A stretch of 64,000 nt of DNA from Candidatus Kerfeldbacteria bacterium (GTDB taxonomy: Bacteria > Patescibacteriota > Patescibacteriia > UBA10025 > JAHIVO01): NCBI GenBank assembly GCA_047946875.1, contig CP181398.1:969041-1033040 (forward strand), in the 5' to 3' direction. Positions 32,797 to 54,736 of the stretch are shown here, in pieces (position 1 is the first letter of the stretch; the number at the start of each line of letters is the position of its first letter). A model generated the notes under the pieces. It searched no databases. It was not told the DNA's origin and saw only the letters and a list, made by a program, of their open reading frames with translations. The translations under genes and the position numbers were made by a program.

Positions 32797-33411
32797 TTAA
32801 TATTTGCATATAATAAATGCACAGAGCCAAGCAGAAAAACCACAAATGCCAGTAACACATGGGTACCAAAATGGTCCAGCATAAATGCAACCAATGGCAC
32901 CACCTCCACATTTATCAAGAACACATAGCCAGAAGCAGCTCCACCAAGACGAAGCTGCCGCTTTGGACATAATGCCTTTCTTTGACACATTATAAGTCGT
33001 GCCTACAGCAGTCTCACTATCAATAACATTTACTTCAGTTACATCAACCGATACTACTTCATTCTCTTCAATGAAACGTAACAGATAAAAACTACTATCA
33101 TTTTTTCCCTTAAATGGAATAATAATACCAGTAATACCTTCCGACTGACCACCAATTGCCTGATCATAGTTCACCTCATAACCACGATCACTTAATTCTT
33201 TCACAGCAACTATTGTCATTTCATTTGCTTTTACATACGCTATTGCGTCACTAAGCTGTTGTTCATCTAACAACCCATCATATTGTGAAGCAATAGGATT
33301 ATGTTGAGATGAATCATTGTCAGAACAACCAACAGTCATTAGTATCATAGAAAACATCGCCAGTGTCATGAAACCCATGGCGAACTTTTTAAAAACAGTA
33401 TTTGTCAGCAT
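32797..33411 (-). CDS. Lipoprotein with a C-terminal Gly/Cys/Trp-rich hydrophobic tail
   Basis: Signal peptide with lipobox (LMTVGC). C-terminal CGGGAIGCIYAGPFWYPCVTGICGFSAWLCAFIICKY. Confidence 0.5.
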   Translation of the reverse strand: MLTNTVFKKFAMGFMTLAMFSMILMTVGCSDNDSSQHNPIASQYDGLLDEQQLSDAIAYVKANEMTIVAVKELSDRGYEVNYDQAIGGQSEGITGIIIPFKGKNDSSFYLLRFIEENEVVSVDVTEVNVIDSETAVGTTYNVSKKGIMSKAAASSWWSCFWLCVLDKCGGGAIGCIYAGPFWYPCVTGICGFSAWLCAFIICKY

Positions 33412-35953: not shown

Positions 35954-36011
35954 AAATTTTTATCATCATACAAATAAAATTCTGCTTAATATCAATCTAC
36001 AGACTATTTTA

Positions 36012-38339
36012 TTATCTATACACTGGTCTTGGACAACATGGATGACCATCATTCGCAGGATTATCACAATTAACAGCACATTCACAAGAACGATTTACAG
36101 TATCACATTGATAATCACTAGGACAGCCACAATCAGTACAATCTGTTTCAGTTAGTTCACCGTCAATACATATCTTCCCAGTATCACCCGGTATATTACA
36201 TTCTCCTGGTAAAACACCATCTTCACAAATTTGTTCACAATAACCTTCATCAGTACATACATCTCCCGCGTCTACACAGAGTCCTTCATGATCTCCACAG
36301 GCAAAACAATGAGCCCAAGAATCAAAACCACACGTACGATCACCACAGCTACTTACAGCTGGCACACTTTCACAATAAGCATCAGCTGTACCGGCACCAA
36401 CGCAAGTATCTACGGTACACCAATCATCATCAGCACAATCTTTATTGACTTTACAAAGAAATTCTACTTCTACGGTCAGTTTTCTTTCTTCCATTGGTAC
36501 ACTATCATCGGAAACAGATAGAGGTGTAATTACTACGCCTGTTTCTAAATCGGTCCATGAGTTATTAAGTTGAAGGGCTACATTTTTACTTGCACCATGA
36601 TACCAACCTCCACAACCACCATAAGGAGGATCGCAAAGATCAAGAAGAAATGATTTATGGCTATATGGATAATCAATTCCCATTGAACGTTCTGTGGTAT
36701 GAATAAGTGCACCTGTAAGAAGATTAGAACTAGTAACTGAGGTTTCATCAAAACCAATTGGCTGGCGATACTCAACATATATATAATGATTATCCCCACG
36801 GGGTATTTTTAGTGCTTTGAGTTTTAATCTGTCAGCAATCTCAATTGGATATAGTTCATATGTTCCACTATTAGTAATAGTCTGAATTTCAATAACGTTC
36901 ATCCAGCCCGTTGCATCTTTATGAAGCGCGTTGTAATGAGACATTGTGACATAACCCATTGCATCGTGGAGATCTAAGGCTTCGTCAATACCACCAGCAA
37001 AAACACATTCACTTAATGGCGTTGTAAATGTATTACAGCGAAGAACCGCTGCATGTTTATTACCAAGATTGTGTCCAAGTTCATGACCTAAATAATGAGC
37101 ACTTTTTCTAAAATCATAATCATAACCAACCGCACCTTCTGCAACAGGAAAATCAAGCGCCCTAACTGTTACACGGCCTATTTGATACTCATCACCAGGC
37201 TCTGTACCAGGTATAGTAATAGCATCTTGATCAACTGACCCAATACTTGCCATTCCAGCCCAAGTACATGAATCTCCATTACTCTTTCGCCATGGTGCAA
37301 TAATTACCAAATGATCATATTCCGTAAAGTCAATACTATCATCAGCATCATAGGCTTCTTGCATGGACTGCTCATAAAAAGATATATAAACTTCACATGA
37401 TACATCCAAATCAATCTTGTACCTAGAATTTGGATTTGTGGGATAAATATCAGCTGAGGCTGTAGGGTTTGCTATTCCAGCAAAGTGCAGTTGATCATAT
37501 GAGTTTTCTACATAGTAATCATTAATATTGTCCATTACTTTTCCAATAGTTTCATGTTCAGGGCTTGTTTCAGAGGTATTAGCAAAATCAACTTTCAAGA
37601 TTATTGTTTTACGCTCACCAGTAACTGACTTGTCGGATTTCTCTAATGTTACCCTATAACCTGAGAGGTTCTCTGAAGACTTTTCAGCTAGGTTATTTGC
37701 TCCGTCAAATAATAGCTTGTCATCCAATACATAACCAACAATTTGAGCGATGGTTCTTGAGGTTGTAATATACTTTGGTGATACTGATGGAAAGAGGCTT
37801 ATTGAACTGTCATCATCTGTAACAAAGGTATATGAGTCTTTACTGATGCCTTCTTCAAAATTATCAAAAGTATTTATATAAACCTTTCCGTCATACGTAG
37901 TTAATATTTCTGAACAATTAGTAGCATAGGTATTTACTTTATCAAGCTCTGCTTTGGTAAATACTGATTCTAAAGCTGCAGATGAATCCATCTGCATTAG
38001 ATCTGATAAAAGCTGTTTTCTGATAATAATAAGGGATTGGATTGTACTGACATTCTTCCCTGCTGCCAAGGCTGCTCTGAGATCAGTATTTACTTTGTTC
38101 ATTGAGCTTATCATCTCCTTAATATCAGTACTGTCTACTACTGGTTTTTCTAATATCAATGGTTTTGACTCAGCACACGTTACTTTTACTATCCTTTGTT
38201 CAACAGTTGTAATTGGTGAACTAAAAAACCCTGCAATAATCCCTGTTGCCAAACACAAAGACGCTCCCATCATTACGGCAACAACAATTTTTTCTTCAAT
38301 AGAAACTTTGGTTTTTACCTGTTGTTGATCTAATTTCAT
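36012..38339 (-). CDS. Membrane-anchored reprolysin-like zinc metalloprotease with a C-terminal ~150-aa Cys-rich module; paralogue f
   Basis: Signal anchor QVKTKVSIEEKIVVAVMMGASLCLATGIIAGFF. Zinc motif YLGHELGHNLGNKHAAVLRCN (HExxHxxGxxH). The C-terminal module CADDDWCTVDTC...GDRTCGFDSWAHCFACGDHEGLC...PCCPRPVYR has about 30 Cys. Confidence 0.8.
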   Translation of the reverse strand: MKLDQQQVKTKVSIEEKIVVAVMMGASLCLATGIIAGFFSSPITTVEQRIVKVTCAESKPLILEKPVVDSTDIKEMISSMNKVNTDLRAALAAGKNVSTIQSLIIIRKQLLSDLMQMDSSAALESVFTKAELDKVNTYATNCSEILTTYDGKVYINTFDNFEEGISKDSYTFVTDDDSSISLFPSVSPKYITTSRTIAQIVGYVLDDKLLFDGANNLAEKSSENLSGYRVTLEKSDKSVTGERKTIILKVDFANTSETSPEHETIGKVMDNINDYYVENSYDQLHFAGIANPTASADIYPTNPNSRYKIDLDVSCEVYISFYEQSMQEAYDADDSIDFTEYDHLVIIAPWRKSNGDSCTWAGMASIGSVDQDAITIPGTEPGDEYQIGRVTVRALDFPVAEGAVGYDYDFRKSAHYLGHELGHNLGNKHAAVLRCNTFTTPLSECVFAGGIDEALDLHDAMGYVTMSHYNALHKDATGWMNVIEIQTITNSGTYELYPIEIADRLKLKALKIPRGDNHYIYVEYRQPIGFDETSVTSSNLLTGALIHTTERSMGIDYPYSHKSFLLDLCDPPYGGCGGWYHGASKNVALQLNNSWTDLETGVVITPLSVSDDSVPMEERKLTVEVEFLCKVNKDCADDDWCTVDTCVGAGTADAYCESVPAVSSCGDRTCGFDSWAHCFACGDHEGLCVDAGDVCTDEGYCEQICEDGVLPGECNIPGDTGKICIDGELTETDCTDCGCPSDYQCDTVNRSCECAVNCDNPANDGHPCCPRPVYR
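37815..38150. repeat. About 330-bp near-identical direct repeat (copy 1) shared with 47395..47730
   Basis: Compared by eye, the stretch from ggtatatgagtctttactgatgcc through tggtttttctaatatcaa matches the second copy with only 1-3 mismatches. It encodes the identical ~100-aa N-proximal segment (MISSMNKVNTDLRAALAAGKNVSTIQSLIIIRKQLLSDLMQMDSSAALESVFTKAELDKVNTYATNCSEILTTYDGKVYINTFDNF) of paralogues f and c. Confidence 0.7.
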
Positions 38340-38366
38340 ATTTCTTTTCTTTTCTTCATATGAAAA

Positions 38367-41300
38367 TTAATCCATTCCTCCAGCTGGATCTGTACCTGCA
38401 CAAGCTGGATCAGGTTTACGTGGATTATAGTTACTACACTCTGGATCATCTGGTTGTGGTGTTGGTGCTTCACACTGACCACTAGCACATGAGCCCATGC
38501 ACTGTAGTGGTACTCCAACACATTCATCCCATCCCGGATGATATTGATCACTACAATAATATTCCATATATTGAGTTGAATTTACACATGTTATTTCATT
38601 ATATTCATCTTTATCATAACATTTACCAAATTCTGTAGGATTAAATCCTCCACAATCTCCTCCATCACACCAATTATCAGAATCATAACAAACACAGTTA
38701 GAACCAGCACAACCAATTGCACATGTCCAAAGTTCTGCTGGTTCACAGCCACTTGTACCACATTGATAGCCTTGGACATTACCTGCATTACATGTTTGAG
38801 AATGGTAACCAGCTAAATCAGTACAAGATGTTACAACGCTTTGTAAATCTGGGTCACGATAATCAATCCAACCGTCACAATCATCATCAAGATAGTTTAG
38901 GCACACTTCGTTATCGCTGCAATCCCAATCGTGATAAAAGTAAATATCATCATTATCGTTACCATTCACCCCATATGCATTCCACACTATTCGATTTTCA
39001 GAAATTGCCATATATCCCAAAGATATATATGGATCTGATGATCCACTCATTAATTCAGTAAGTCCTGCTGCTGTATTATCAAGATCATATAAATACAGTG
39101 GATTATCATCATTAAAATAAGAAGCTTTTAACAATATAATCTTTGAACCATCAATATCTAGTGCTTCTATATGGCCCTCGGGAATGCTATAAATCAATTG
39201 TTGGCCTGCTGTAGGGTTTGACAAATCATATAGATAAAGTTTGTTATAATTCTTCCAAATGATAGTATTGCCAGAAATTCTAGCAAACGCACCATCAGAT
39301 TCGGCTATCAGCTGCTTACCGGCAGCGGGATTGGATAGGTCAAACATATATATATACGGATTTTCGTCTCCCCAATCAACCCACACTATCTTACCTTCAT
39401 CGATATCTAATAAGTGTCTCTCTGCTTCAGTTCCAGGGAGTTGTTGGACTCCAGCAGCGGGATTGGATAGGTCGTAGTGGTAAATAAAATAGACTTCCCA
39501 CAAACCAGTTTCCGACCAAATGATATTATCACCTGATATTTCAAGTACATCAAGCTCATACAAATTAGAATCAGCTATCTGTTGAACACCAGCTCCTGGA
39601 TTAGATAGATTATAATAGTAAATAAAACCAGCTGTAGTCCACACTACATTATCACCCGAAATAGATAAATTAGTAACATACCAATCGGCGGATAAAGCAA
39701 TACTTTGAATTCCCTCTTGCGGATTATCAAAATCAAAGGTGTCTATATAGGTATCATCATAATTATATCTAGCCCACACTGCACGACTACCCGATATATC
39801 TGGCTTGATGTTATGTTCCCAGTCCCCATCAACTGTGTAGCCATATCCATGCGTTAATTTTGCTGGACCACGAGATGCAAGCTGTATCGGCGTATCATAT
39901 ACAAATCCCCCTATTGCAGAATTGACTGATAAACGAATTGTGTAGTCACCAATTGGCACATTCAATATATTCCATTCACCAAGAATGCCATCTATTACTG
40001 GTGTTGTGACTAGACCTCCTATTGCTACCCAATCATCTTTGCCTGTTTCGCTATATAAAAGCTGATATGATGTTTGAGGAAAACCAACTGTGGCAGCATG
40101 TGCTGTTCCCGTGATAGTTATTGTATCCAGCAGCAATTCCTGCGGATACAGATATGTATACAAAGCTGGACTAGTAATTTCAGCAACCTCAGTGACAGGG
40201 AATGGATATAATCCATTTACTTCAGCAGCGGCCTGAATTTCTGCAAAATGTGGTGTGCCATTAATAATAATTCCGTCATCATCGTCAAGTACTATAAGGT
40301 CAAATAATGCATAAGGGATATTAGGTGAATTTGCAAGTACGGTCGACATTACCAAACTCTCTGCTATATCTACACCAAGCATTTGACGTAACTGCCATGC
40401 AAAACCAACCCATGCCTGTCCCAGCCTATGAACTTCATCAACTCCGCCCTGGGGGTATTGATAATCATTTTCAGCAGTACGAATGTAAGTATCTTCTCCG
40501 AAAAAACCTTCACCAATAATCGGCTGATCAGTTGCATAAGTAGCAAAAATATCTGCCCACCCTTCTGATAAACCAATTCCTGCGTTAGTATCTGGTATGC
40601 CACCGGCCATATGGTCAATAAAATGACCGTATTCATGATATAGTATTGTATCATACGCACTATATATACAGCTTTGACCTAGCCATTGATCATATCCTGC
40701 GCGATAAAAACCTATTTCCTGGTCATCGTCGTTGTATGCAAAATATGCATTACATAATGTACTGCAACAACCAGACGTTCTATTTACTAACGCCCGTAAA
40801 GGAATATCTATTCCCGTCAATGGCACTGGCAAATGTTCCTGTGCCCAATCATGTATATATGTCGTGTGGTAATAGGCATTCACCTGCGACGTTAAAGACT
40901 CGTTATTACCATCTGGATTAAATGGTAGGTCAATTGATACACCGGGATCAGCCGACTCATCAAATTCAATGTTTTCTGCGCCACTCAAGGAATACACAGC
41001 AGCCCATTGACCAAATAATTGTGCCTGTACGTTTGTTGGACTCGTTTCAGTCGGGAATATAAAGCTACCATCGTCATTGGTAAACTGCTCACTCCCTGAT
41101 GTTGTTGAAACGGTTAAATCATCGAGTTCAAAATTCGTCAGATCGTCTAACGTCACTAATGGATCAAATAAAACGCCGCGGCCATGAACAGAACCCTGGA
41201 TAGTGGCGTACAGACGCTTATCACGGACTCGGGCAGCGCCAGTGTGTTTATCTACGAATACTGTTTCAACTGCTTCTTCATACTGTACTTTTTGCAACTT

Positions 41301-42224
41301 TCTCCAACGTCCATCCATATATTTAATTATTTCTTCTGAACCCTTGGGGATCAATCGACTGGCCTCCAAATTTAGGGATGTCGCAGCAGCTCGCTGAATA
41401 GATATATCATCCCGTTCCACTGCTTTCGGTAAATCAAGATCTGGGTATACTTGAGCGCTTGCATATACAACCGTGCTCTTATCTTTCCATTGTTTTATCG
41501 CAAAGTGTACATATGAACCCACCACATCAAGCCCATCGTGCATCTGAATAAAATCTACGAATACAGTTGATGGTTTATTTACCTCGCCCGGTATTGTAAC
41601 AATATAAGTATGCTTCATTTCCCCCGCTTTGATTCCACCGATGAAGTCAGTATTACTTACTAAATAATTCTCAAGTTCATCAACAACCGCAGCTTCTGTT
41701 TGAGGGTTCCCGCGCAGATCAACAGATCCAATGCTTTTTCTAACCGCATGCTGAGGCATTTCACTTTGTTGAATACCAAGATTCCATTCTTTAATTACAT
41801 TCGATAGTCTAGAATCTGGTAACCGTGTAGTCATTGTAGCAACAATTCCAAATGAAATTCCTGCTATTTCTTCATATGCCTCCAACTTTGGAACGGCTGA
41901 ATACGGAATCTGTGCAATAAATGCACCAGCGTCATAAACGCGTCTAATCATTCCGCCTTCGCGTTCAATAATATTCTTCACAGAATCTATGTCTTCATAT
42001 GCAGTCTCAGATACGATAACAAGTGCTTCCTGGTTAGCTTCTTCCTGTATGGTTGGTAATACGGCAGGTTGGGTAACAGTCGTGGTATCTTTCGATGCCA
42101 GCGTTAACAGGAATATTCCAAAAGCAACTCCAACACAGGACACCGCGATCATACCTACTCCAAGCGTTATCTTGGTCGCGTTGATTTGTCGTACCTTTAC
42201 TACGGTGTCTTGTTGGTTTTCCAT
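38367..42224 (-). CDS. Membrane-anchored thermolysin-like (HExxH...ExxxD) zinc metalloprotease with PD40/TolB-like beta-propeller repeats and a C-terminal Cys-rich region; paralogue e
   Basis: N-terminus MENQQDTVVKVRQINATKITLGVGMIAVSCVGVAFGIFLL. ILYHEYGHFIDHMAGG plus GLSEGWADIFA 20 aa downstream (compare thermolysin HELTH...NEAISDIFG). Five to six ~48-aa repeats of ISGDNIIW...IYxYDLSNPAAGxQQL. C-terminal ~200 aa with more than 30 Cys. Confidence 0.75.
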   Translation of the reverse strand: MENQQDTVVKVRQINATKITLGVGMIAVSCVGVAFGIFLLTLASKDTTTVTQPAVLPTIQEEANQEALVIVSETAYEDIDSVKNIIEREGGMIRRVYDAGAFIAQIPYSAVPKLEAYEEIAGISFGIVATMTTRLPDSRLSNVIKEWNLGIQQSEMPQHAVRKSIGSVDLRGNPQTEAAVVDELENYLVSNTDFIGGIKAGEMKHTYIVTIPGEVNKPSTVFVDFIQMHDGLDVVGSYVHFAIKQWKDKSTVVYASAQVYPDLDLPKAVERDDISIQRAAATSLNLEASRLIPKGSEEIIKYMDGRWRKLQKVQYEEAVETVFVDKHTGAARVRDKRLYATIQGSVHGRGVLFDPLVTLDDLTNFELDDLTVSTTSGSEQFTNDDGSFIFPTETSPTNVQAQLFGQWAAVYSLSGAENIEFDESADPGVSIDLPFNPDGNNESLTSQVNAYYHTTYIHDWAQEHLPVPLTGIDIPLRALVNRTSGCCSTLCNAYFAYNDDDQEIGFYRAGYDQWLGQSCIYSAYDTILYHEYGHFIDHMAGGIPDTNAGIGLSEGWADIFATYATDQPIIGEGFFGEDTYIRTAENDYQYPQGGVDEVHRLGQAWVGFAWQLRQMLGVDIAESLVMSTVLANSPNIPYALFDLIVLDDDDGIIINGTPHFAEIQAAAEVNGLYPFPVTEVAEITSPALYTYLYPQELLLDTITITGTAHAATVGFPQTSYQLLYSETGKDDWVAIGGLVTTPVIDGILGEWNILNVPIGDYTIRLSVNSAIGGFVYDTPIQLASRGPAKLTHGYGYTVDGDWEHNIKPDISGSRAVWARYNYDDTYIDTFDFDNPQEGIQSIALSADWYVTNLSISGDNVVWTTAGFIYYYNLSNPGAGVQQIADSNLYELDVLEISGDNIIWSETGLWEVYFIYHYDLSNPAAGVQQLPGTEAERHLLDIDEGKIVWVDWGDENPYIYMFDLSNPAAGKQLIAESDGAFARISGNTIIWKNYNKLYLYDLSNPTAGQQLIYSIPEGHIEALDIDGSKIILLKASYFNDDNPLYLYDLDNTAAGLTELMSGSSDPYISLGYMAISENRIVWNAYGVNGNDNDDIYFYHDWDCSDNEVCLNYLDDDCDGWIDYRDPDLQSVVTSCTDLAGYHSQTCNAGNVQGYQCGTSGCEPAELWTCAIGCAGSNCVCYDSDNWCDGGDCGGFNPTEFGKCYDKDEYNEITCVNSTQYMEYYCSDQYHPGWDECVGVPLQCMGSCASGQCEAPTPQPDDPECSNYNPRKPDPACAGTDPAGGMD

Positions 42225-42271
42225 ATATTTATTATTGGATAAATTAGATATTTATTTAGTAAGTATATGTA

Positions 42272-45200
42272 TTATCTATACACTGGCGTTGGACAACATG
42301 AATGATCATCATTTTCAGGCCTGCTACAATCAACATTACACTCACAAGTACGACTTACAGTATCACATTGATAACCACTTCTGCAGTCACAATCCATACA
42401 ATCTGTTTCAGTTAGTTCACCATCAATACATATTTTCCCGGTATCACCTGGTATATTACATTCTCCTGGTAAAACACCGCCCTCACAAACTTGTTCACAA
42501 TATCCTTCATCAGTACAAACATCTCCGGCTTCCACACATAGTCCTTCATTGTCTCCACAAGCAAAACAATGTGCCCATGAATCAAACCCACACGTACGAT
42601 CACCACAACTGCTTACAGCTGGAGTACTTTCACAATAAGCATCAGCCGTTCCTGTATCAACGCAAGTATCTACTGTGCAAGGATCATCATCAGCACAAGT
42701 TCTATTTTCTATACACGTAACACACTCGTTAATTGCTGTATTACAAATATAATCACTCTCACATCCACACTTGATACAGTCATTTGCTAAATAACGACCA
42801 TCACAATACTGACGGCTAGCATTGCAACTATAAGGATCCGTACCATCATCACAACCATCTCCAACATCAACATCAATTGTAGTTATTCCATAATTAGGTC
42901 CCGGACCTGCTATTGCAGGAATTGTTACATTAATATATTGCTCACCAACTATCGTCAGAAAAACTTCATGTTCATAATAGGGGTATCCAAATACTTCCAG
43001 CTTATGGACTCCTTCGGTAATAGAGATACGAACGGATGATGTTCCTTCAGAACTCTTTATATCTCTTTGAGCTTGAGCTTGAGGTTGATCATCTATATAT
43101 ACATACACTCTTCCATCTAGGCCTTCCGGATTGTTAATATTAATTTCAAGTATATCAGTATCCCCCCAGCCAATTTGGGCCATAGTATGCCAATCAAACA
43201 TAGGTTCTCCGAGATCATCACAGAAATGACCACAATCACTCCAAGCGCCATTCTTCATGAGACTATCAATTTGGTATGGACTGCAAATAATATCATTTTC
43301 ATTAGTCTTGGCTGAATTTCCTCCTGCAGCAATGACCCGATTAGCAGCTGTAGCACGTGCGTTGCATCCAATACTGTCTGTACGCCCATATTCATCCTCG
43401 GCAAAAAATACATGTGCTGATTCGTGAGCAGCAACACTTGAATCTCGGCGAAGATCACGCGCTCCCTCAAGAAAAATACCTATCTCATTATCACCAAACA
43501 CAGTGCCACCTGAACCGGAGTCTAAACGATAAATAGCGGAGCCAACTAACCTATAGTAACTATTACTTAGCGAATCTACGACTATACTCCCTGAGTATAA
43601 GGCATCTGCACTTTCAATATTATCACCAAACGTTGTTCCTCCTGTGCCAGAATCAAAGCGATAATCGTAAAACATATTAAACCCCGAAACATACACTTTA
43701 TCATGCACCGTATCAATAGCAATATCTTGAGGAATACTAATTCCTATGGTGTTCCAATTATCACCAAACACAGTGCCACCTGAACCGGAGTCAAAAAGTA
43801 CAACACGACCATTCATTTCATCAGCTACATAAACCTTATTACCCACACTATCAATGGCAATGCCTAATGGATTCCAAAAACGATTAGTTCCGCCCCATCC
43901 ATAGGATCCAAATGTTTCCCAATTATCACCAAATACCGTCCCGCCAGAACCCGAGTCAAAACGGGCAACACGATTATTAGATGTATCAACAACATAGACT
44001 TTATTATTAATATCATCAATAGCAATTCCTTTTGGACCATTAAATTGACCAACGCCGGATCCAACAGTTCCAAATTGTTCAATATTAAAACCAAGTGTAG
44101 TCCCGCCTGAGCCGGAGTCAAAACGTACAACACGGTTATTAGACGTATCAGCTACATAGACTTTGTTATTACCCGAATCAACTGAAACGCCCCACGGTGA
44201 TGAAAGTCCTAATCCCAAAGTCATACTCTCTTGATTCTGCCCGAATGTTGTCCCTCCTGAGCCGGAGTCAAAACGGGCAACACGATTATTGAATTTATCA
44301 ACTGTATATAATTTATTATTAATCTGATCAATCGCAAGGCCAGTTGGTTCATCCAAATTATTCATTCCATAAGACCAATTAAGAATAGCAAAGTGCCCCA
44401 GATATGCTTGAGGCCAATAATTATCGCCATTCACCGCTGGACGTAATTCATCCTTAACTACAAAAATAACAAAAGCTGTTTGTGCATTAAAATAATCAGC
44501 CATTTCTTGAGAGTATTTATCTACCTCGGATTGAAAACTATTTACAGTATCAAAACAAATATCAAAGTCAGTAGTACCAAATACACACACATTACGATTC
44601 CGCATTAATTGGTGCACCCAATACTTATTCTCAACATTTGTTGAAGGTTCATATTCAGTTTGTTGATCTGAATCAGCAGGATTTTCATAAAGTACATGAA
44701 ATGAAAGATTTTTACTCTCTGGAGCAGCATCGGCTAATCCATAAAGACCGTATAAAGTATTTAACGAGTGATCAATATATTGATCGTATGTCCAATTTTC
44801 ATCACCGGATCCACTGGCTGCACTCTCAACATAAATAAGATCAACGTAAATCAATCCGTGCATGCCACTTGCTCCCGGTGTAGAGCTTTTTTCTCCTCCG
44901 TCCATCTGTGATTCATAATAATCCTGGTGTATCTGAATTTCTCCTTGTCGCTCCTCTTTTGTTAGCGATGAATCATTATTAACATCTTCAATAATCATCT
45001 CTAATGCTTCTTCATCGGTTATTGTATCTTTTCCTAAATCTAAAACCTCTTTACGATCACTAACTACCACCTCACTATAAACTATTTTTTTATATGAATT
45101 GAGAAACTCCTGGGTTACAGCACTATACTCATCAAGTGAATCTTTGGCTAATATATCATTACTTGTGATAAGCTCTGTTACTAATGCGTTTTCACGAATC

Positions 45201-45598: not shown

Positions 45599-45669
45599 GT
45601 TTTTATCATTAAATGTATTAGATGATTTATTTTGTTGAGCCATATTTAATATATATTAATAAATATTTT

Positions 45670-47919
45670 TTAATAATACACGGGAGCTTCTGGTATACAA
45701 CATTTCCATTCAATATGAGAACAATAATATTTAACACCACTAGCATCATAAAGATCGTAATCATCACATTCATTTATAAATTTATTAATACACGTACCAC
45801 CCTCATCTTCGCATGTACTTGTGCTACATTGTCCGCTCATACAATAACTTCCTGCTTCGCACTCACCACAATCAAAACATCCATCAACACTTTGACCACA
45901 CACTTTATCACCGCACGAGTTTTGTATTAATTCATTAGAGCAATTCGCATCAGCAGTACCAACATCAGCACATATATCGGTCGTACACCTATCTCCATCG
46001 TCACATTCGCTGTTAGTACTGCAGAGATAAAGATATTCTATTTCAACTGTCAATTTTCGTTCTTCTGTGGGAACACTGTCATCAGAAACTGATAGTGGGC
46101 TAATTTTTACATTTGCCTCTATATCAGTCCATGAATTCCCGACTTGTAATGCTACATTCCTACTGGCGGCGTTAAACCAATTTCCACACTCGCCATATGG
46201 AGGTCCACAAAGATCAATTAAATATGATTTAGCACTATTTGGGAAATCTACTCCTGCTGAACGTTCTGTAGTATGAACAAGTGCACCTGTAATAAGATTA
46301 GACCAATTAACTGAAGTCTCATCATAGCCAATTGGCTGGCGGTACTCTACATATACATAATGATCATCTCCACGTGGTATTTTAAGAGCTTTTAACTTTG
46401 ATCTGTCTGCAATTTCAATCGGATACAACTCATATATTCCATTGGCATCAACTGTTTGAATTTCTGTGCCGTCAATAAACCATCCTGTTACATCTTTATG
46501 GAGAGCATTATAATGAGACATTGCTGTATTGCCCATAATTTCATGGCTATCGCGATATTCATCGCCACTATCAAAAACACATTCACTTAATGGTGTTGTA
46601 AAGGCGTTACACCGAAGAACCGCAGCATGACGATTGCCAAAATTATGCCCAAGTTCATGTCCGGAATTAATTGAAATTTGCCTAAAATATGAATCATAAT
46701 TTGGTACACCTTCATAGGCTGGATAATATCTAGATTGAAGTGTTACACGTCCTATTTCATATTCATCACCCGGGTTCGTACCTGGTATTGTCATTTCATC
46801 CTGATCAGCAGACCCAAGACTTGCATATGCAGCCCACCAACATGGACTACCATCACTCTCCTGCCAAGGTGCTACGACAACTACATGATCGTATTCCGTA
46901 AAATCAATGTCATCAGCATCATAGGCTTTTTGCATAGATTGTTCAAAAAATGTTTTTAAATATGTTTCATAATCACAAGTAGTATTGAAATCAACCTTAT
47001 ACCGTGAACTTGGATTGCTAGGATAAATATCAGCTGTTTCTCCAGGATTTACTACTCCTCTAAAGCTTAATTGGTTATATGAGTTTTCTAGATAGTAATC
47101 GTTTGTATTATCCATTACTTTTCCGATAGTTTCATGCTCTGGGCTTGTTTCAGATGTATTGGCAAAGTTAACCTTTAAGATTATTGTTTTACGTTCACCA
47201 AGATATGATGTATTAGATTTGTCTTGTGTCACTAAATATCCCGATATGCCATCAGCAGGATTTTCAATTAAATTCCGCGCCCCGTCTAATAATAACTTAT
47301 CATCAAGCACATATCCAATAATTTCAGCCGTGGTACTTGAAACTGTAATATCTTTTGGTGGTACGGATGGGAACAGATTTATTGAGTTATCATCATTTGT
47401 AATAAAGGTATATGAGTCTTTACTGATGCCTTCTCCAAAATTATCAAAAGTATTTATATAAACCTTTCCGTCATACGTAGTTAATATTTCTGAACAATTA
47501 GTAGCATAGGTATTTACTTTATCAAGCTCTGCTTTGGTAAATACTGATTCTAAAGCTGCAGATGAATCCATCTGCATTAGATCTGATAAAAGCTGTTTTC
47601 TGATAATAATAAGGGATTGGATTGTACTGACATTCTTCCCTGCTGCCAAGGCTGCTCTGAGATCAGTATTTACTTTGTTCATTGAGCTTATCATCTCCTT
47701 AATATCAGTACTGTCTGCTACTGGTTTTTCTAATATCAACGGCTTTGATTCAGTACACGTTACTTTTACTATCCTTCGTTCAATAGATGACGTTGGTGTA
47801 CTAAAAAATCCAACAACAATCCCTGTCGCCAAACACAAAGACGCTCCCATCATAACCGCAATAATGATTTTTTCTTCAATTGAAACTTTGGTTTTTATTT
47901 GTGGTTGATCTAATTTCAT
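45670..47919 (-). CDS. Membrane-anchored reprolysin-like zinc metalloprotease with a variant C-terminal Cys-rich module; paralogue c
   Basis: The start was trimmed to MKLDQPQIKTKVSIEEKI (47917-47919). Zinc motif SGHELGHNFGNRHAAVLRCN. The C-terminal Cys-rich module ends KCCIPEAPVYY. Confidence 0.8.
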   Translation of the reverse strand: MKLDQPQIKTKVSIEEKIIIAVMMGASLCLATGIVVGFFSTPTSSIERRIVKVTCTESKPLILEKPVADSTDIKEMISSMNKVNTDLRAALAAGKNVSTIQSLIIIRKQLLSDLMQMDSSAALESVFTKAELDKVNTYATNCSEILTTYDGKVYINTFDNFGEGISKDSYTFITNDDNSINLFPSVPPKDITVSSTTAEIIGYVLDDKLLLDGARNLIENPADGISGYLVTQDKSNTSYLGERKTIILKVNFANTSETSPEHETIGKVMDNTNDYYLENSYNQLSFRGVVNPGETADIYPSNPSSRYKVDFNTTCDYETYLKTFFEQSMQKAYDADDIDFTEYDHVVVVAPWQESDGSPCWWAAYASLGSADQDEMTIPGTNPGDEYEIGRVTLQSRYYPAYEGVPNYDSYFRQISINSGHELGHNFGNRHAAVLRCNAFTTPLSECVFDSGDEYRDSHEIMGNTAMSHYNALHKDVTGWFIDGTEIQTVDANGIYELYPIEIADRSKLKALKIPRGDDHYVYVEYRQPIGYDETSVNWSNLITGALVHTTERSAGVDFPNSAKSYLIDLCGPPYGECGNWFNAASRNVALQVGNSWTDIEANVKISPLSVSDDSVPTEERKLTVEIEYLYLCSTNSECDDGDRCTTDICADVGTADANCSNELIQNSCGDKVCGQSVDGCFDCGECEAGSYCMSGQCSTSTCEDEGGTCINKFINECDDYDLYDASGVKYYCSHIEWKCCIPEAPVYY
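47395..47730. repeat. About 330-bp near-identical direct repeat (copy 2) shared with 37815..38150
   Basis: See copy 1. The duplicated antisense ORFs 37954..38328 and 47534..47908 (both MVNTDSKAADESICIRSDKSCFLIIIRDW...) are a by-product of this identity. Confidence 0.7.
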
Positions 47920-47990
47920 AGATTTATTATTATACGATTTTTTTAGTTGAATGGGCATTAGTACAAAATATTATGAACGGATAGTATATT

Positions 47991-50900
47991 TTATCTATGC
48001 ACTGGCGTTGAACAACATGCATGATTTGGATAGTTTGCACAATTAACAGAACATTCGCAATAATAATCTCCTTGGCCATTATCCCAACAGGAATACCCGC
48101 CACTACATCCGCATACTCGGCAATCCGTATCAATTAGTTGGCCATCTTCGCATAACAGAGCGCCATTACCCACTCCATTACATGCTCCGGCGGGAGTACT
48201 TCCACAATCTGAATAACAATAGTTATCAAGACATGTATTACCTCCTACACACGATCCATTATAATCTCCACATACGGAACAATGTTTCCATGTATCCCAA
48301 CCGCATTCATAATCACCACATTCACTTGCTACAGGAGCGTTTGTGCAATATGAATCAACCCCAGTTCCAACACAAATATCATTCGTGCATAAATTACTAT
48401 CATAACAATCTTCATTAACACTACACGTTATAACCGTAAGCGTCATTGATACTGTGTTGAACTTCTCTGGATTTGCTACTTCCCTCACACCAAAGGTGAG
48501 ATCATAACTGCCAACCTGTTCTATAGTAGGTGTCCACATAAATACTCCATTGGCAGAAAGAAGGTTAGCTCCAGCTGGCAGATTGTCCACATAATATTCT
48601 ATCGCATCACCATCAAAATCCATGCCTTTCAAAAGAAGATTAAAGGAAGAACCAGCAATTACTTCTCGATCATCGATAGCACGGATAACTGGATCGTTAT
48701 TGATATATGTCCAATAAATATCCCAATTAGACCCGCCAGCTCGATTATCCATCCAAACAACTTTATCTCCTGATATTGCTGGATTTGTTTGTCTGTCTGT
48801 ATCAAAAGTCAACTGTACTCCACTTAAAGTGGGATTAGCTAAATCATAGAAATAAATATCATCATTGCCACTTCGTGTGTCCATAAATACAATATAATCT
48901 CCATCAATCGAAGGTTGTTGTTGATCTGCTGGATGATCAAATACTCTTTCCATTGTCTGACTAGTAATATTATAGATAAACAGATTATAATTATATGTAT
49001 CCCATACTATATTACCATCCGAAAAATCAAGTTCTCTAAGCCAAGTAGCCTTGCTAACAGCCAACTGTGCCCCAAGCTCTGGCTTATCAAGTTGGTAATA
49101 ATAAATATCATCATCATCTAGAAAATCACGCGGCGTAGAAAAAAACACAATTGTATCACCATCCATACTTGCATCATATGACTGTATTGAAGAATCATCA
49201 GTTAACTGTTGTATACCTAAACCCGGATTAATAATATCAAACAAATATATTTCTTTCGGACCTGTCCCCTCATCATGAAATACGATTTTGTTATTCGCCA
49301 TATCCATTTTAGAATTACAACACCCAATAAGTCCGGTAGCAGCTAACTGCTCTCCTGCAACCGAATTATTAAGATCATAGTAATATATTTCTTTTTTAGT
49401 ATAATCAAGCCAGACGATATAATTTTGATCTACAATAGGATACCTCTGAAAATCTGAATCAAATGTAATTCTTTGTTCTCCGGCCCCAGGATTATTCAAA
49501 TCATAATAATAAATATCATAACCATTACGCTCATCTTGCCAGACGATTATATCACCACTAATTTGTGGTCTATTTTGACTACCTAAATCCGTCGTAAGCT
49601 GAATAGGCGGAATTATACCAATGCTAACTGTTTGTGTATCAATAAAATAACCCACCGATGTGCTCACTATAAGCTTCAGAGTATAAACACCTAGTTGTAA
49701 ATTATGTACATCCCACTCACCAATCACTCCGTTATCAACATCTGTAAAACCCTCTATAATCTGTGTCCAAGTATCTGGATTTGTACCTTCCCCATAATAT
49801 AATTTATAATCATCTAGCTCTGCCACAATTCCCAGTGCATTTGCATTACCCATAACTGAAACAAAGTTCTCGCCAGCCAAGAAAAGTTCTGACAAATATA
49901 TTGTCTCAACTGGTTGTGTAATCAACGCTACAGTATCAAGATGGAATGGATATAAATTATGATTTTCAGCTGCATTAATGATAGCGCCTAGATGTGGTGT
50001 GCCATTTCCCAAGTTAGCATCATTATCATCAATAATAAGTAAATCAAGCACAGCACTAGGAATATCAGATGAATTAGCTAATATAGTTGGTAATACAATA
50101 TCTTCGGCTGTTTCCGCGCCAAGTGCTCGCCTAAGATCCCAAGCTAAACCAACCCATGCTTGTCCTAGATCATGCTCATCAACACCCTCGGGATTTTCAG
50201 GATACTGGTAATCATTATCCGCTGTTCGTATATGTTCACCCATTGCCCAGTAATTTTCTCCAATTAATGGTTGGCCAGTAGCAAATGTTGAGAAAATATC
50301 AGCCCATCCTTCAGATAAACCTTTATTAGTAATGCCCCCAAGTTTATGATCCACAAAATGACCATACTCATGATAAATTATTGTGTCATAAGCAGGATTT
50401 AAACAAATCCCGTCGCCAGAGAGATAAAATTCAATATGGAAAAAATAGCGATCATATGATGCATTACATATATAATCTGGATCAGGGTTATTTACATGCA
50501 ACCGAACTGGATAATCAAGCCCAAAAAAAATTTCATTAATAACAGACACTTGGCTGCCCAATTCTGACTCTATCCAGTCATGAATAAAAGAACCATGATA
50601 GTAAGCATTTACCTGAACTGTAGAATGTTCATCATTACCCGTGGGATTCAAATGTATTATCTCATCAATACTTTCTGTCGCATTGTCATTTTCATAATAT
50701 ACCCATGGTTCGCTCCAAGTTCCACTAAAAAGATGTTCTCCTCTCATAGCAGCTGTAATACCAATTGGTGTAGTGCTAACATCAAGTGAGAAATCGCCTG
50801 ATTCATCAGTGTAAGCTACATCATTATCATCAGACCAAACTTTCATATTTTTTAATGGTGCTTCGGTCAAACTATCTCCTGTTGTCCTTGGATCAAATTC

Positions 50901-51989
50901 TACAAAACGTCCCGTTACATTGCCTTGTATCTGAGCAAAGATAAGGCCATTTTCCCGGAACACTTCACCGTTATCACGGTCTACTATTGCGATATCCGTA
51001 GAACCTTTAAAGGCATAAATATTAACTCTACGCCAAGCATTATCAATGTATCTAACTGATGATTCAACTATTGGTGTTTCATAATTACTATCATCAAGCG
51101 TGAGTGCTCCAACTATCGAAGCTTTATCTGTACTATCATCAATTCCCAGTACTTCTGTTGCTCGTTGTTCTAGTATTCTTTCTAACTGAGGCGTTGCTGT
51201 AACAAGTGACAATTCTGGATAAACATTACTTGACGCGTATTGGATGACACTTTCGGTGTCAGTCATTTTAATAGCGAAATGAACATAGGTGTCTTCAACC
51301 GGTAAACCGTCTTTCATTTGTACGAAGTCAACAAAGGCTGTAGCTGCTCTACTTTCTGTAGCTGGGATTATGACACTGTATGTTTCTTCAAAATTATTGA
51401 CTGATAGACTTCCAATTAAGTCAGAACTTAATTGGGACTGTACTGCATCAACAATAGCTTGTTTCTCTGTAATCTTAGTGGTCGCAATTAGTTCAGTTCC
51501 ACTCTTTCCGGCTAATAGTGCAGGCGGCTGCTGTTTGTTAAATTCACTTGTATTCCATTGATCAATGACCTCCTCATAATATGCCTGCTCTTTCGGATCA
51601 TATTCCGACTGGATAGCACCAAAAAAGACATCCTTCACACTGTCGTCAGCTCTTAGTGCTTCAATGCTTGAATATGGAATTGTTGCGTACAAAGCAACCT
51701 CTGATGATTGATCGGCAATTATTCCACCGCTTTTTTCAATAATACTGATAAGAGAGGTGGTATCGACATCAGTAACTAAGAGTATCATTGCATCCCTGTT
51801 TTGATCTACGGCAACTAAGGTATCTTCTGGTGGTGGTTGAATTGCTTCTATATCCTGATCAAGCTTTGAAAAAAGCAGCAATCCAAAAGCAGCACCAACA
51901 CATAATACCGCGATCATGCCTATTCCAAGCATTATCTTAGTCGCGTTGATTTGTCGTACCTTAACTTTAGTATCTTGTTGGTTTTCCAT
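47991..51989 (-). CDS. Membrane-anchored thermolysin-like zinc metalloprotease with PD40-like beta-propeller repeats and a C-terminal Cys-rich module; paralogue b
   Basis: The start was trimmed to MENQQDTKVKVRQINATKI (the ORF runs to 52007). IIYHEYGHFVDHKLGG plus GLSEGWADIFS. Repeats DIYYYDLNNPGAGEQ. The C-terminal Cys module ends ACCSTPVHR. Confidence 0.75.
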   Translation of the reverse strand: MENQQDTKVKVRQINATKIMLGIGMIAVLCVGAAFGLLLFSKLDQDIEAIQPPPEDTLVAVDQNRDAMILLVTDVDTTSLISIIEKSGGIIADQSSEVALYATIPYSSIEALRADDSVKDVFFGAIQSEYDPKEQAYYEEVIDQWNTSEFNKQQPPALLAGKSGTELIATTKITEKQAIVDAVQSQLSSDLIGSLSVNNFEETYSVIIPATESRAATAFVDFVQMKDGLPVEDTYVHFAIKMTDTESVIQYASSNVYPELSLVTATPQLERILEQRATEVLGIDDSTDKASIVGALTLDDSNYETPIVESSVRYIDNAWRRVNIYAFKGSTDIAIVDRDNGEVFRENGLIFAQIQGNVTGRFVEFDPRTTGDSLTEAPLKNMKVWSDDNDVAYTDESGDFSLDVSTTPIGITAAMRGEHLFSGTWSEPWVYYENDNATESIDEIIHLNPTGNDEHSTVQVNAYYHGSFIHDWIESELGSQVSVINEIFFGLDYPVRLHVNNPDPDYICNASYDRYFFHIEFYLSGDGICLNPAYDTIIYHEYGHFVDHKLGGITNKGLSEGWADIFSTFATGQPLIGENYWAMGEHIRTADNDYQYPENPEGVDEHDLGQAWVGLAWDLRRALGAETAEDIVLPTILANSSDIPSAVLDLLIIDDNDANLGNGTPHLGAIINAAENHNLYPFHLDTVALITQPVETIYLSELFLAGENFVSVMGNANALGIVAELDDYKLYYGEGTNPDTWTQIIEGFTDVDNGVIGEWDVHNLQLGVYTLKLIVSTSVGYFIDTQTVSIGIIPPIQLTTDLGSQNRPQISGDIIVWQDERNGYDIYYYDLNNPGAGEQRITFDSDFQRYPIVDQNYIVWLDYTKKEIYYYDLNNSVAGEQLAATGLIGCCNSKMDMANNKIVFHDEGTGPKEIYLFDIINPGLGIQQLTDDSSIQSYDASMDGDTIVFFSTPRDFLDDDDIYYYQLDKPELGAQLAVSKATWLRELDFSDGNIVWDTYNYNLFIYNITSQTMERVFDHPADQQQPSIDGDYIVFMDTRSGNDDIYFYDLANPTLSGVQLTFDTDRQTNPAISGDKVVWMDNRAGGSNWDIYWTYINNDPVIRAIDDREVIAGSSFNLLLKGMDFDGDAIEYYVDNLPAGANLLSANGVFMWTPTIEQVGSYDLTFGVREVANPEKFNTVSMTLTVITCSVNEDCYDSNLCTNDICVGTGVDSYCTNAPVASECGDYECGWDTWKHCSVCGDYNGSCVGGNTCLDNYCYSDCGSTPAGACNGVGNGALLCEDGQLIDTDCRVCGCSGGYSCWDNGQGDYYCECSVNCANYPNHACCSTPVHR

Positions 51990-52044
51990 ATATTTATTAT
52001 TAGACATATTAGATATTTATTTAGTAAATATGTGAAATTTATTT

Positions 52045-54399
52045 TTATCTATACACTGGTGTTGGACAACATGGATGATCATCATTAGCGGGATTATCAC
52101 AATTAACATTACATTCACAATAACGATTTTCTGGGTCCGTGAAGTTACATTGATAACCGCTTCTACACCCACAATCTAAACAATCTGTTTCAACTAATTC
52201 ACCATCAATACATATTTTTCCAGTATCGCCCACTATATTACATTCTCCTGGCAGAATACCACCTTCACAGATTTGTTCACAATAACCTTCATCAGTACAT
52301 ACGTCTCCATCATCAACACATAGTCCTTCATTATCTCCACAAGCAAAACAATGTGCCCATGAATCAAAACCACAAGTACGATCACCGCAACCACTTACAG
52401 CTGGAGTACTTTCACAGTGTGCATCGGGTGTCCCAGCGTCAACACAAGTATCTACTGTACACCAATCATCATCAGCACAATCTCTGTTAACTTTACAAAG
52501 AAATTCTACTTCTACTGTTAGTTTTCTTTCTTCCATTGGTACACTATCATCAGAAACAGATAGAGGCGTAATTACTACACCTGTTTCTAGATCAGTCCAT
52601 GAGTTATTAAGCTGAAGTGCTGTATTTTTGCATACACCACCCCAAGGTGAACAATTTCCGCAACCACCATAAGGAGGTCCACAAAGATCAAGAAGGAATG
52701 ATTTATTTCTATGAAAATCAATTCCAGCTGAACGCTCTGTGGTATGAATAAGTGCGCCAGTCATAAGATTAGACCAATTAACTGCAAACTCATCAAAACC
52801 AATTGGTTGACGATACTCAATGTATATATAGTGATCATCTCCTCGTGGTATTTTTATGGCTTTAAGTTTTAATCTATCAGAAATTTCAATAGGATATAAT
52901 TCATATGTTCCACTATTGGTAATAGTTTGAATTTCAATACCATTCATCCATCCTGTTACATCTTTATGGAGAGCATTATAGTGAGACATTGAATAATAAC
53001 CCATAATATCATGAGCATCTTTATATTCATCACTACTATTAAAAACACATTCGCTCAATGGAGTTGTAAGTGCGTTACAGCGAAGAAGTGCTGCATGTTT
53101 ACTACCAAGATTATGTCCGAATTCATGTCCAACAATCCTTGAAGAATTATTAAGATCAAATTCATAATTTGGATATTCCGGATCTTCATAAGGAGGGAAG
53201 TATTCTGAAATAGCTGTCATATAACTTATACTATACTCGTCACCAGACTCCGTACCAGGCACGGTAATAGCATCTTGATCATATGATCCAAGGGTTGCCG
53301 ATCCAAGCCACCCACACGAATCTCCGTCACTATGTTGCCATGGTGCTATTGCTACCACATGATCGTATTCCGTAAAATCAATACCATTAGCATCATAAGC
53401 AACTTGCATAGATTGTTCAAAAAAAGTTTCCCATATTTGATCCTCTTCCCCATGATCACATGTTTTATTCATACTAATCTTATACCGTGAATTTGGATTA
53501 ATAGGATAAATATCAGCTGAGGCTGTAGGGTTTGCTATACCTGCAAAGTGTAGTTGATTATATGAATTTTCTACATAGTAATCATCAACATTATCCATAA
53601 CTTTTCCGATAGTTTCATGCTCCGGGCTTGATTCAGAAGTATTGGCAAAATCAACTTTTAATATTATGGTCTTGCGCTCACCAAGGTATGCTCTACTAGA
53701 CTTTTCTAGAGTTACTCTATAGCCTGAAAGACTATTTGCAGACTTTTCAGCAAGGTTGTTTGCTCCATCAAATAATAGTTTATTATCAATAGTATAGCCA
53801 ACTATTTGAGCTACTGTTCTGGAAGTTGTTATTTCTGGTGGTGGTGTTGAAGGGAATAAACTTATTCTATTATTATTTGATACAAAGGTATATAGTTCTT
53901 TACTTATGCCTTCTTCAAAACCATCAAAAGTAGTTATATAGACTTTTCCATCATAAGTATTTAATATTTCTGTACAATTATTAGAGTAGGTATTTACTTT
54001 ATCTAGCTCTGCTTTGGTAAATACTGAATCCAAAGCTGCGGATGAATCTACCTGCATCAGATCTGATAAAAGCTGTTTTCTTTCAATAATGAGTTCTTGT
54101 ATTAAACTGACATTCTTGCCTACTGAAAGTGCTTGTCTGAGATCAATATTTAATTTACCCATAGAGTTTGTCATCTCTTCAATGTCAGTACTATCTGCTA
54201 CTAGTTTTTCTAATACCAGTGGCCTTGATTCAATACAAGTTACTTTTACTATCTTTTGTTCAACAAATGATATTGGTGTACTAAAAAACCCAACAACAAT
54301 CCCTGCTGCCAAACACAAAGACGCTCCCATCATCAGAGCAACGCCAATCTTTTCTTCAATTGAAACTTTAGTTTTTACTTGTACTTCGTTTGATTCCAT
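52045..54399 (-). CDS. Membrane-anchored reprolysin-like zinc metalloprotease with a C-terminal Cys-rich module; paralogue a (first gene of the array)
   Basis: MESNEVQVKTKVSIEEKIGVALMMGASLCLAAGIVVGFF. RIVGHEFGHNLGSKHAALLRCN (HExxHxxGxxH). The C-terminal module ends PCCPTPVYR. Confidence 0.8.
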   Translation of the reverse strand: MESNEVQVKTKVSIEEKIGVALMMGASLCLAAGIVVGFFSTPISFVEQKIVKVTCIESRPLVLEKLVADSTDIEEMTNSMGKLNIDLRQALSVGKNVSLIQELIIERKQLLSDLMQVDSSAALDSVFTKAELDKVNTYSNNCTEILNTYDGKVYITTFDGFEEGISKELYTFVSNNNRISLFPSTPPPEITTSRTVAQIVGYTIDNKLLFDGANNLAEKSANSLSGYRVTLEKSSRAYLGERKTIILKVDFANTSESSPEHETIGKVMDNVDDYYVENSYNQLHFAGIANPTASADIYPINPNSRYKISMNKTCDHGEEDQIWETFFEQSMQVAYDANGIDFTEYDHVVAIAPWQHSDGDSCGWLGSATLGSYDQDAITVPGTESGDEYSISYMTAISEYFPPYEDPEYPNYEFDLNNSSRIVGHEFGHNLGSKHAALLRCNALTTPLSECVFNSSDEYKDAHDIMGYYSMSHYNALHKDVTGWMNGIEIQTITNSGTYELYPIEISDRLKLKAIKIPRGDDHYIYIEYRQPIGFDEFAVNWSNLMTGALIHTTERSAGIDFHRNKSFLLDLCGPPYGGCGNCSPWGGVCKNTALQLNNSWTDLETGVVITPLSVSDDSVPMEERKLTVEVEFLCKVNRDCADDDWCTVDTCVDAGTPDAHCESTPAVSGCGDRTCGFDSWAHCFACGDNEGLCVDDGDVCTDEGYCEQICEGGILPGECNIVGDTGKICIDGELVETDCLDCGCRSGYQCNFTDPENRYCECNVNCDNPANDDHPCCPTPVYR

Positions 54400-54570: not shown

Positions 54571-54736
54571 TCTCTTTGAAATTAATAAACTAATAAATTA
54601 AAATATTATGAATTGCCAATTAATATTATAAAAACTATTTACCTATATACCAAAACACCACGGATATATATCCGTGGTGAAATGGTTACCCCTAAATTTA
54701 ATGATTTAAGGAATCATATTATATTCTATGAAAAGA

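Follow-up and report, generated by a model that had tools for sequence, protein, structure and literature searches.

The stretch of DNA considered here (the window) comprises 64,000 nucleotides from a metagenome-assembled genome (MAG) of Candidatus Kerfeldbacteria bacterium, a member of the candidate phyla radiation (CPR). Its minus strand carries eight consecutive genes for large proteases (33806-58132), seven of which encode an HExxH zinc motif (a to g) and one a subtilase (h). Several of the HExxH proteins, otherwise different from one another, close in the same cysteine-rich module and finish on nearly the same four residues, PVYR. The locus raises the question of what such a module does on so many proteases, and whether its last residues form a new C-terminal sorting or attachment signal, as the initial annotation suggested. 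CPR bacteria are thought to grow attached to other cells and to rely on these for building blocks; almost none of their surface proteins has been characterised. We propose, with slightly better than even confidence, that the module serves as an extracellular accessory domain without catalytic activity, likely disulfide-bonded, at the distal tip of type II surface proteases, and that it has a binding or targeting role.

The cysteine-rich module and its units

The C-terminal modules of b, d, f and g comprise 144-150 residues and contain exactly 24 cysteines each. All lie on the minus strand, as do the other features of the protease locus given below. The g module (52045..52497) covers residues 635-784 of its protein and ends CCPTPVYR; the b module (36012..36455) covers residues 629-775 and ends CCPRPVYR; the d module (42272..42715) covers residues 977-1123 and ends CCPTPVYR; and the f module (47991..48425) covers residues 1195-1338 and ends CCSTPVHR. 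Protein e has a short variant (45670..46023, residues 646-762) of 117 residues with 18 cysteines, made of the units A and B described below and a different tail of the 'YYC...CC[IL]P' type ('YYC...CCIP' in e itself), ending APVYY. The initial annotation had placed the module on six of the seven metalloproteases. The module is real, but the count is five of the seven, four full-length and one shortened, since the cysteine-rich tail of protein c is not homologous. That tail (38367..38930, the last ~187 residues, ending AGGMD, with 22 cysteines in the last 200) gives zero matches to hidden Markov models (HMMs) of the units and an hhalign probability of 0.2%. The number of cysteines had been put too high, at about 30: d reaches 32 in its last 200 residues only through an extra unit C upstream of the module. 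The acidic character stands, Asp plus Glu far exceeding Lys plus Arg (30-32 against 7 in b, d and g; 19 against 3 in f), as do the consensus string drawn up earlier, which fits b, d and g, and the observation of five alike endings (PVYR in b, d and g, PVHR in f and PVYY in e). The cysteine spacing, described as invariant, is identical in b and d; one gap differs in g, and a few gaps are off by 1-3 residues in f.

The b, d and g modules are mutually 82-86% identical in protein and 83-85% in DNA, and that of f is 48-51% identical to them. Part of the invariance among the copies reflects recent paralogy. Homologues from other organisms, at 39-51% identity, retain nearly all of the cysteine columns, and the constraint on the module is therefore real. 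This is a genuine, conserved, acidic, cysteine-rich C-terminal module carried by otherwise different proteases.

Sub-profiles resolve the module into a chain of separable units, A, B and C, and a CC-containing cap. Unit A (~36 residues; 52390-52497 in g) has the pattern CxxNxDCxDxxxCTxDxC...G....C...P and is like the Pfam family Dicty_CTDC. Unit B (~40 residues; 52267-52389) follows CGDxxCG....CxxCG...C.....C.....C, and unit C (~50 residues; 52114-52266) follows CxxGxxPGxCN....C.DGxL...DCxxCGC..GYxC....C. The cap, CxVxC...NxHxCC, is followed by 6-8 residues (tail and stop codon at 52045-52113). The units also occur in other settings. Protein d has its extra unit C at residues 931-972 (42728..42853), detected with an independent E-value of 2.1e-5 among the open reading frames (ORFs) of the window and 4.8e-6 among the retrieved proteins. 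The C-terminal tail of subtilase h holds a weak unit-C-like piece (54821..54940; hhalign E 0.0023, 41% identity over 37 columns). A second S8 subtilase paralogue, of 1103 residues, is encoded on the same contig past window position 64000 (L006 2397-5708) and by eye has a unit-C-like cysteine piece near its end, after which it terminates in ...GECCKKVSGQLICKDELEQQNESLPPAL, similar to the tail of h. Among the homologues retrieved (designated by P numbers), the order is C-x-A-B-C in P0003 and P0009, unit C lies ahead of A-B in P0020, and A-B-C is internal, not terminal, in P0065. Unit C is found by itself in a 690-residue homologue of d from a second organism (L002).

The proteins that carry the module are diverse, comprising M6/M11-like metzincins (b, e, g, P0009 and P0020), the c/f-type protease f, NHL-propeller HExxH proteins (d and P0011) and C1A enzymes (P0005 and P0080). 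The bodies of b and d are unrelated, whereas protein identity between their modules is 82% and DNA identity 85%, and the identity between the two genes rises from ~50% to 80-95% at the module boundary. The bodies of b and e, by contrast, are 75% identical and their modules only 42%. From these two comparisons the module behaves as a cassette exchanged among members of the array. We suggest that its units, a compact vocabulary of small cysteine-rich elements, have moved as cassettes between protease bodies that are unrelated and of at least four classes, and have been homogenised within the seven-gene tandem array.

The tail of c starts with a CLNYLDDDCDGWIDYRDPD segment, which we take to resemble the MopE-type 'putative metal-binding motif', and continues with '...YYC...C...C..GxC' pieces that match no model at threshold. 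By eye, these pieces resemble the region between units C and A of P0003 and P0009.

Beyond the window the module is very rare. Word-index searches for homologues yielded nothing, whether the query was the g module or an alignment of 10 sequences. An exhaustive HMMER profile search of 1.84 billion representative proteins (E<=1e-3) gave 73 matches, and only about nine clusters from outside the window had units A and B or the complete module: the C1A papain-type P0005 and P0080, the d homologue P0011/P0079, the b/e/g homologues P0020 and P0009, and some fragments. P0009 is a paralogue encoded in the same MAG (locus tag ACNFW9_04595), and the second organism encodes three such proteases in adjoining genes, namely a C1A enzyme, a d-like protein and a b-like protein. 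The remaining matches have unit A alone. Unit A occurs in 449 copies in the 73 proteins, up to 27 per protein, and the majority of the unit-A proteins start with a signal-like hydrophobic stretch. Many of them (P0006-P0071) are multi-repeat proteins of up to 6297 residues that share the N-terminal start 'AADVAYIYKxxxxID' and have periodic repeats of ~100 residues, composed of unit A and a 'CGxDGFxG...C...NPGT..S.C' unit. These look like a large, uncurated family of cysteine-rich surface proteins. A search with full-length g found its own paralogues and one fragment at 28% identity, and the databases contain essentially no true orthologues of b, e and g. A pattern search of species genomes derived from the module alignment gave 600 matches, 0 of which were confirmed by tblastn, and the literature yielded nothing specific on this module or on Kerfeldbacteria surface proteins. 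The module is in this sense a defined and very rare domain, amenable to expression, to binding assays and to disulfide mapping.

The PVYR terminus

The terminal peptide CC-x-[TS]-P-V-[YH]-[RY] had been put forward as a new sorting or attachment signal, with its absence from homologues in related genomes as the test set beforehand. PVYR is absent from every homologue found, including the same-genome paralogue P0009, which ends PDTGIN. The other homologous modules end in PTPTDR (P0003), LHDIPALK (P0005), IPSETPLDR (P0011/P0079), IPASLNIE (P0020) and LPASSGID (P0080/P0059). Among stop-to-stop segments of at least 50 residues in the window, none other than the five ends PV[YH][RY]. A degenerate DNA scan of 185,579 species genomes for CCPxPVYR followed by a stop codon gave 18 matches, all of them short spurious ORFs, and a scan of a metagenome collection for HxCCxxPV[YH]R plus stop gave 32, likewise all in short spurious ORFs.

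Nor does the peptide have the surroundings of a known signal. Only 6-8 polar residues come after the last cysteine, no hydrophobic helix or basic tail follows PVYR, and the window proteins match no repeat or sorting-domain model in NCBIfam (E<=1). Membership in the LPXTG/sortase, PEP-CTERM, PGF-CTERM, GlyGly-CTERM and MYXO-CTERM classes, or among type IX secretion system (T9SS) C-terminal domains, was rejected for want of a hydrophobic segment with basic tail or a beta-sandwich domain of ~80-100 residues, and of a model match. No sortase is encoded within the window or the fetched flanks, and no exosortase-like gene is present in the window.

The five local tails are written in nearly the same bases, CCA GTG TAT AGA TAA, and share codons that are rare in these genes (GTG makes up 14% of Val codons and AGA 27% of Arg codons). 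Common descent or gene conversion is therefore the best explanation for the invariance of the tail. That the peptide is a signal by which a dedicated enzyme anchors or secretes the proteases is very improbable: besides the absences and the shared codons just given, the proteins appear to be anchored already at their N-termini (see below), and the PVYR-type tail never occurs apart from the module. The idea draws what strength it has from the retention of PV[YH][RY] at the very end of five neighbouring proteins, the diverged e and f included, and from the recurrence of a looser ending, P-x-x-[RK]-COOH, in P0003, P0005 and P0011. The PVYR ending is peculiar to this locus, and its reading as a sorting signal is not supported, which removes a tempting false lead. 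It would instead be the unconstrained end of a domain, inherited by the local paralogues.

Bonding, location and role of the module

Isolated modules matched no Pfam family at E<=10, and a sequence-profile search of the PDB with the module gave noise only. An AlphaFold2 (AF2) model of the g copy, built from the 10-sequence alignment (predicted local distance difference test, pLDDT, 79.7; predicted template modelling score, pTM, 0.51), consists entirely of short beta-hairpins; an earlier five-sequence model with a pLDDT of 61 was set aside. Foldseek returned only faint echoes of EGF, HER2 furin-like and follistatin-type disulfide-rich repeats, and no significant structural match to solved folds. 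On this model the module would not be a single fold, and may be better described as several small beta-hairpin mini-domains strung together.

All ten aligned modules have an even number of cysteines (24, 24, 24, 24, 18, 24, 24, 22, 26 and 18), a parity that favours disulfides. P0009 lacks cysteine columns 148 and 177 together, corresponding to the second C of 'CEC' and the first C of 'CC', which suggests a bond between these two residues and a place for the terminal CC pair in the structural framework. The module is probably disulfide-bonded, with a presumed ~12 disulfides, and it is reasonable to expect that its production needs an oxidative folding system.

The N-termini indicate where the module is likely to reside. 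In 13 of the 13 proteases compared, 15-30 polar residues rich in Gln, Thr and Lys are followed by a Gly/Ala-rich hydrophobic helix of ~22 residues (in b, for example, at window positions 38220-38339). This layout, common to proteins of four catalytic classes and at least three organisms, looks like a signal anchor, and the helix predicts that the remainder of each protease is outside the membrane, where the module would form its distal tip. By inspection, the N-terminal ASLC does not fit the lipobox consensus. Even cysteine counts, the paired loss in P0009 and predicted N-terminal anchors are what is expected of the general class of disulfide-bonded extracellular proteins.

We therefore favour an accessory domain that forms the C-terminal end, remote from the membrane, of proteases anchored by their N-termini. 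Its disulfides would make a rigid, protease-resistant tip. The tip may bind a ligand, which could be a substrate, the cell's own envelope or the surface of a host cell, and such binding would target several classes of protease to one place. Homologues only 39-51% identical to g retain surface motifs other than cysteine (such as GxxPGxCN and DGxLxxTDC), and protein a, which is M11/reprolysin-like and contains a Big_7 domain, has a dockerin-like duplicated Ca-loop segment (residues 628-677, 33923..34072) at the position where its paralogues have the cysteine module. Together with repeated recruitment of the module by unrelated proteases, these observations support a binding role, and there is a precedent in Peribacteria, for whose clusters of exported cysteine-rich proteins a role in attachment has been proposed (PMC4736985). 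Some points weigh against the accessory-domain reading. The AF2 alignment contained just 10 sequences and the pTM was 0.51; no Dsb, VKOR or thioredoxin-like gene was found within the window or the fetched flanks; and four module lineages (the window copies, P0003, P0005 and P0011) have the looser P-x-x-[RK]-COOH ending in common, so that the extreme C-terminus may be under some constraint. With so few sequences, this sharing is also what ordinary homology of the last residues would be expected to give.

The evidence bears unequally on other accounts of the module. An inert stalk or cap that stabilises the proteins against self-digestion without binding any ligand would suit hairpins dense in likely disulfides at the free ends of proteins surrounded by many other proteases. 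It is nonetheless unlikely, given that surface residues beyond the cysteines are conserved at such low identity to g and that unrelated proteases have repeatedly recruited the same cassette, suggesting more than stability. Docking in the manner of cohesin and dockerin, by which the module would assemble the proteases on one scaffold or host-surface receptor, could account for one module on proteases of four or more classes with neighbouring genes, for the dockerin-like segment at the equivalent position in a, and for the near-identity of the b, d and g modules. We judge it distinctly unlikely: no candidate partner or scaffold was identified, the dockerin match is just under the Pfam cutoff (Dockerin_1, E 3e-4, 21.3 bits against 22.9), and recent gene conversion explains the near-identity equally well. 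The more specific version, in which an episymbiotic CPR bacterium mounts a battery of proteases on a common scaffold or host receptor through a lineage-specific docking or adhesion cassette, is improbable. Were it true, the cassette would be part of a cellulosome-like 'multi-protease' machine for feeding on the host, made up of M6/M11-like metzincins, c/f-type HEYGH enzymes with beta-propellers, NHL-HExxH proteins, and C1A and S8 enzymes, and the vicinal CC pair near the terminus might join in disulfide exchange with a partner.

The cysteines themselves might bind metal (Zn, Fe or Cu) in clusters of the metallothionein or zinc-ribbon type, in an organism that perhaps has no oxidative folding pathway. 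The CxxC, CxC and CC motifs of the module, the failure to find Dsb or VKOR genes in the window or fetched flanks, and the occasional Cu-binding_MopE motif in related multi-repeat proteins are compatible with this, but it too is improbable in view of the strictly even cysteine counts and paired column loss across ten modules and of the predicted location outside the membrane. Moreover, the sole conserved His is the one in the tail ahead of the CC pair, apart from it and Cys no residue that might bind metal is conserved, no zinc-ribbon or metallothionein model matches, and the structural echoes are exclusively of disulfide-rich extracellular repeats. A built-in inhibitor or latency domain, similar to a knottin or Kazal domain and keeping the active site blocked until its removal, is a very unlikely role for the module. 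Its weak Foldseek echoes do include follistatin/Kazal-type and toxin-like folds (all E > 0.5), and one unit A copy matches a carboxypeptidase inhibitor model with E 0.0096. No structural match is significant, however, and the presence of the module on metallo- and cysteine proteases, and of unit C on serine proteases, is hard to fit to a class-specific inhibitor.

Gene setting and comparison with known systems

The window spans positions 969,041 to 1,033,040 of contig CP181398.1 (assembly GCA_047946875.1). The proteins are recorded for the Candidatus Kerfeldbacteria MAG under locus tags ACNFW9_04930-04955, on a contig of 1.31 Mb, and also in NCBI entry SWBX01001786.1. GC content is ~36%, and the contig carries bacterial housekeeping genes for PolA (by direct reading of the sequence) and for the Pol III delta subunit and single-stranded DNA-binding protein (SSB; both by Pfam). 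The seven HExxH genes form a tandem array in the order g-f-e-d-c-b-a (33806..54399), with g at 52045-54399, f at 47991-52007, e at 45670-47958, d at 42272-45643, c at 38367-42224, b at 36012-38339 and a at 33806-35953. Subtilase gene h (54737-58132), which encodes S8 and FG-GAP domains, lies upstream. The spacers from g to a measure 26-58 nt and no terminator-like site was detected in them, while between h and g there are a strong terminator-like hairpin (54656..54679; CACCACGGATATATATCCGTGGTG then TTTT, with 10 pairs, 6 of them GC, and a T-run) and promoter-like sites ahead of g (54653-54625 and 54570-54542). Genes g to a are therefore probably a single transcription unit, to judge from these sequence features.

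Proteins a, b, e and g have only weak M11, reprolysin and M6 matches in Pfam and NCBIfam; the matches to Reprolysin_2-5 are all under the curated cutoffs, and that to the NCBIfam M6 domain is weak. The metzincin motif HExxHxxGxxH can be read in a, b, e and g, and c, d and f have HExxH in other contexts. There is a faint M36 match in c but not in its paralogue f, in which the protease motif is HEYGH, and both proteins have Methanosarcina-type beta-propeller repeats. Protein d carries NHL repeats.

Several other genes of the window, all on the minus strand, are of note. Directly downstream of the protease array, a 204-residue ORF without a Pfam match (32797-33411) resembles a lipoprotein at its N-terminus (…MTVGC), and a hydrophobic stretch at its C-terminal end holds eight of its nine cysteines (…WWSCFWLCVLDKCGGGAIGCIYAGPFWYPCVTGICGFSAWLCAFIICKY). 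A 754-residue protein (27191-29455) with three lamin-tail domains (LTD), a PKD domain and a C-terminal hydrophobic segment is a probable surface protein. Finally, three ORFs of 371, 1709 and 104 residues (1739-2854, 2980-8109 and 9622-9936), none with a Pfam match, end alike in ...HTVTYTAAADF, ...HIVTYTCAGDF and ...IYWTATADY. They lie to either side of the gene for a membrane protein (7994-9571) that contains a spermidine-synthase-like domain, and they may be a family of surface proteins with a conserved C-terminal strand.

The initial annotation likened the proteases to the ADAM and snake-venom reprolysin architecture while doubting a match to disintegrin, and this was borne out, the likeness being architectural only. 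In both cases a zinc metalloprotease (predicted here from HExxHxxGxxH in b, e and g) is combined with a C-terminal, cysteine-rich, non-catalytic region, which in ADAM proteins mediates substrate and adhesion targeting. The anchor here, however, is N-terminal rather than a C-terminal transmembrane segment, and the module is also found on cysteine proteases. No Disintegrin (PF00200) or ADAM_CR (PF08516) match was found in the full proteins at Pfam E<=0.1 or in the isolated modules at E<=10, and membership in either family was rejected on sequence and on fold.

The nearest curated family is Dicty_CTDC (PF00526), a cysteine-rich repeat of the Dictyostelium extracellular matrix for which we know of no established function, and the likeness concerns unit A only. 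Both are tandemly reusable cysteine-rich units, extracellular by prediction in the case of unit A. Unit A has the signature CxDxxxCTxDxC....G...C...P, and the core C-x-D-x(3)-C-T-x-D-x-C, typical of a cysteine-rich repeat of ~24-35 residues, is present as CADDDWCTVDTC and variants in b, d, e, f and g. Among 74 unit A copies from relatives, 29 match Dicty_CTDC at E<=1, the best with E 9.4e-6; the copy in P0064 scores 20.8 bits, under the gathering threshold of 27. None of the window modules matches the family, unit A of g matching only DUF7107 (E 0.026), and units B and C and the tail have no counterpart in it. No structure of Dicty_CTDC has been solved (PMC8078820), and bacterial teneurin-like proteins have the domain annotated in extracellular regions that are variable (bioRxiv 10.1101/2025.11.11.687626). 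The Myxococcus cysteine-rich repeat (TIGR02232) and DUF4215 match none of the window proteins; repeats of these types were found only in the distant relative P0065, outside its A-B-C region.

Two further systems place an accessory domain at the C-terminus of an enzyme. The granulin domain of plant RD21-type proteases is cysteine-rich and C-terminal on a protease, and the homologues P0005 and P0080 belong to the same C1A papain family. Granulin is disulfide-knotted, and its cysteine pattern and size differ from those of the module; no Pfam family, granulin included, matched the module at E<=10, although granulin was not searched on its own. Type I dockerin, also small and C-terminal, directs enzymes to a partner, and paralogue a has a segment like it, but it is a Ca-binding, EF-hand-like duplication without cysteines.

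Closest in organism are the CPR Peribacteria, in which clusters of large cysteine-rich extracellular proteins, some with FG-GAP repeats, have been described and roles in attachment and rigidity proposed (PMC4736985). They resemble the present locus in the type of organism and in having clustered genes for exported cysteine-rich proteins. As far as their description allows comparison, they differ in being large and mostly unannotated, with no defined C-terminal protease module. Since clustered, exported cysteine-rich proteins in CPR bacteria are already published, the advance made here is incremental: the module is an uncatalogued domain arrangement in a poorly known bacterial group, and it belongs with disulfide-rich extracellular accessory repeats and not with a new sorting system.

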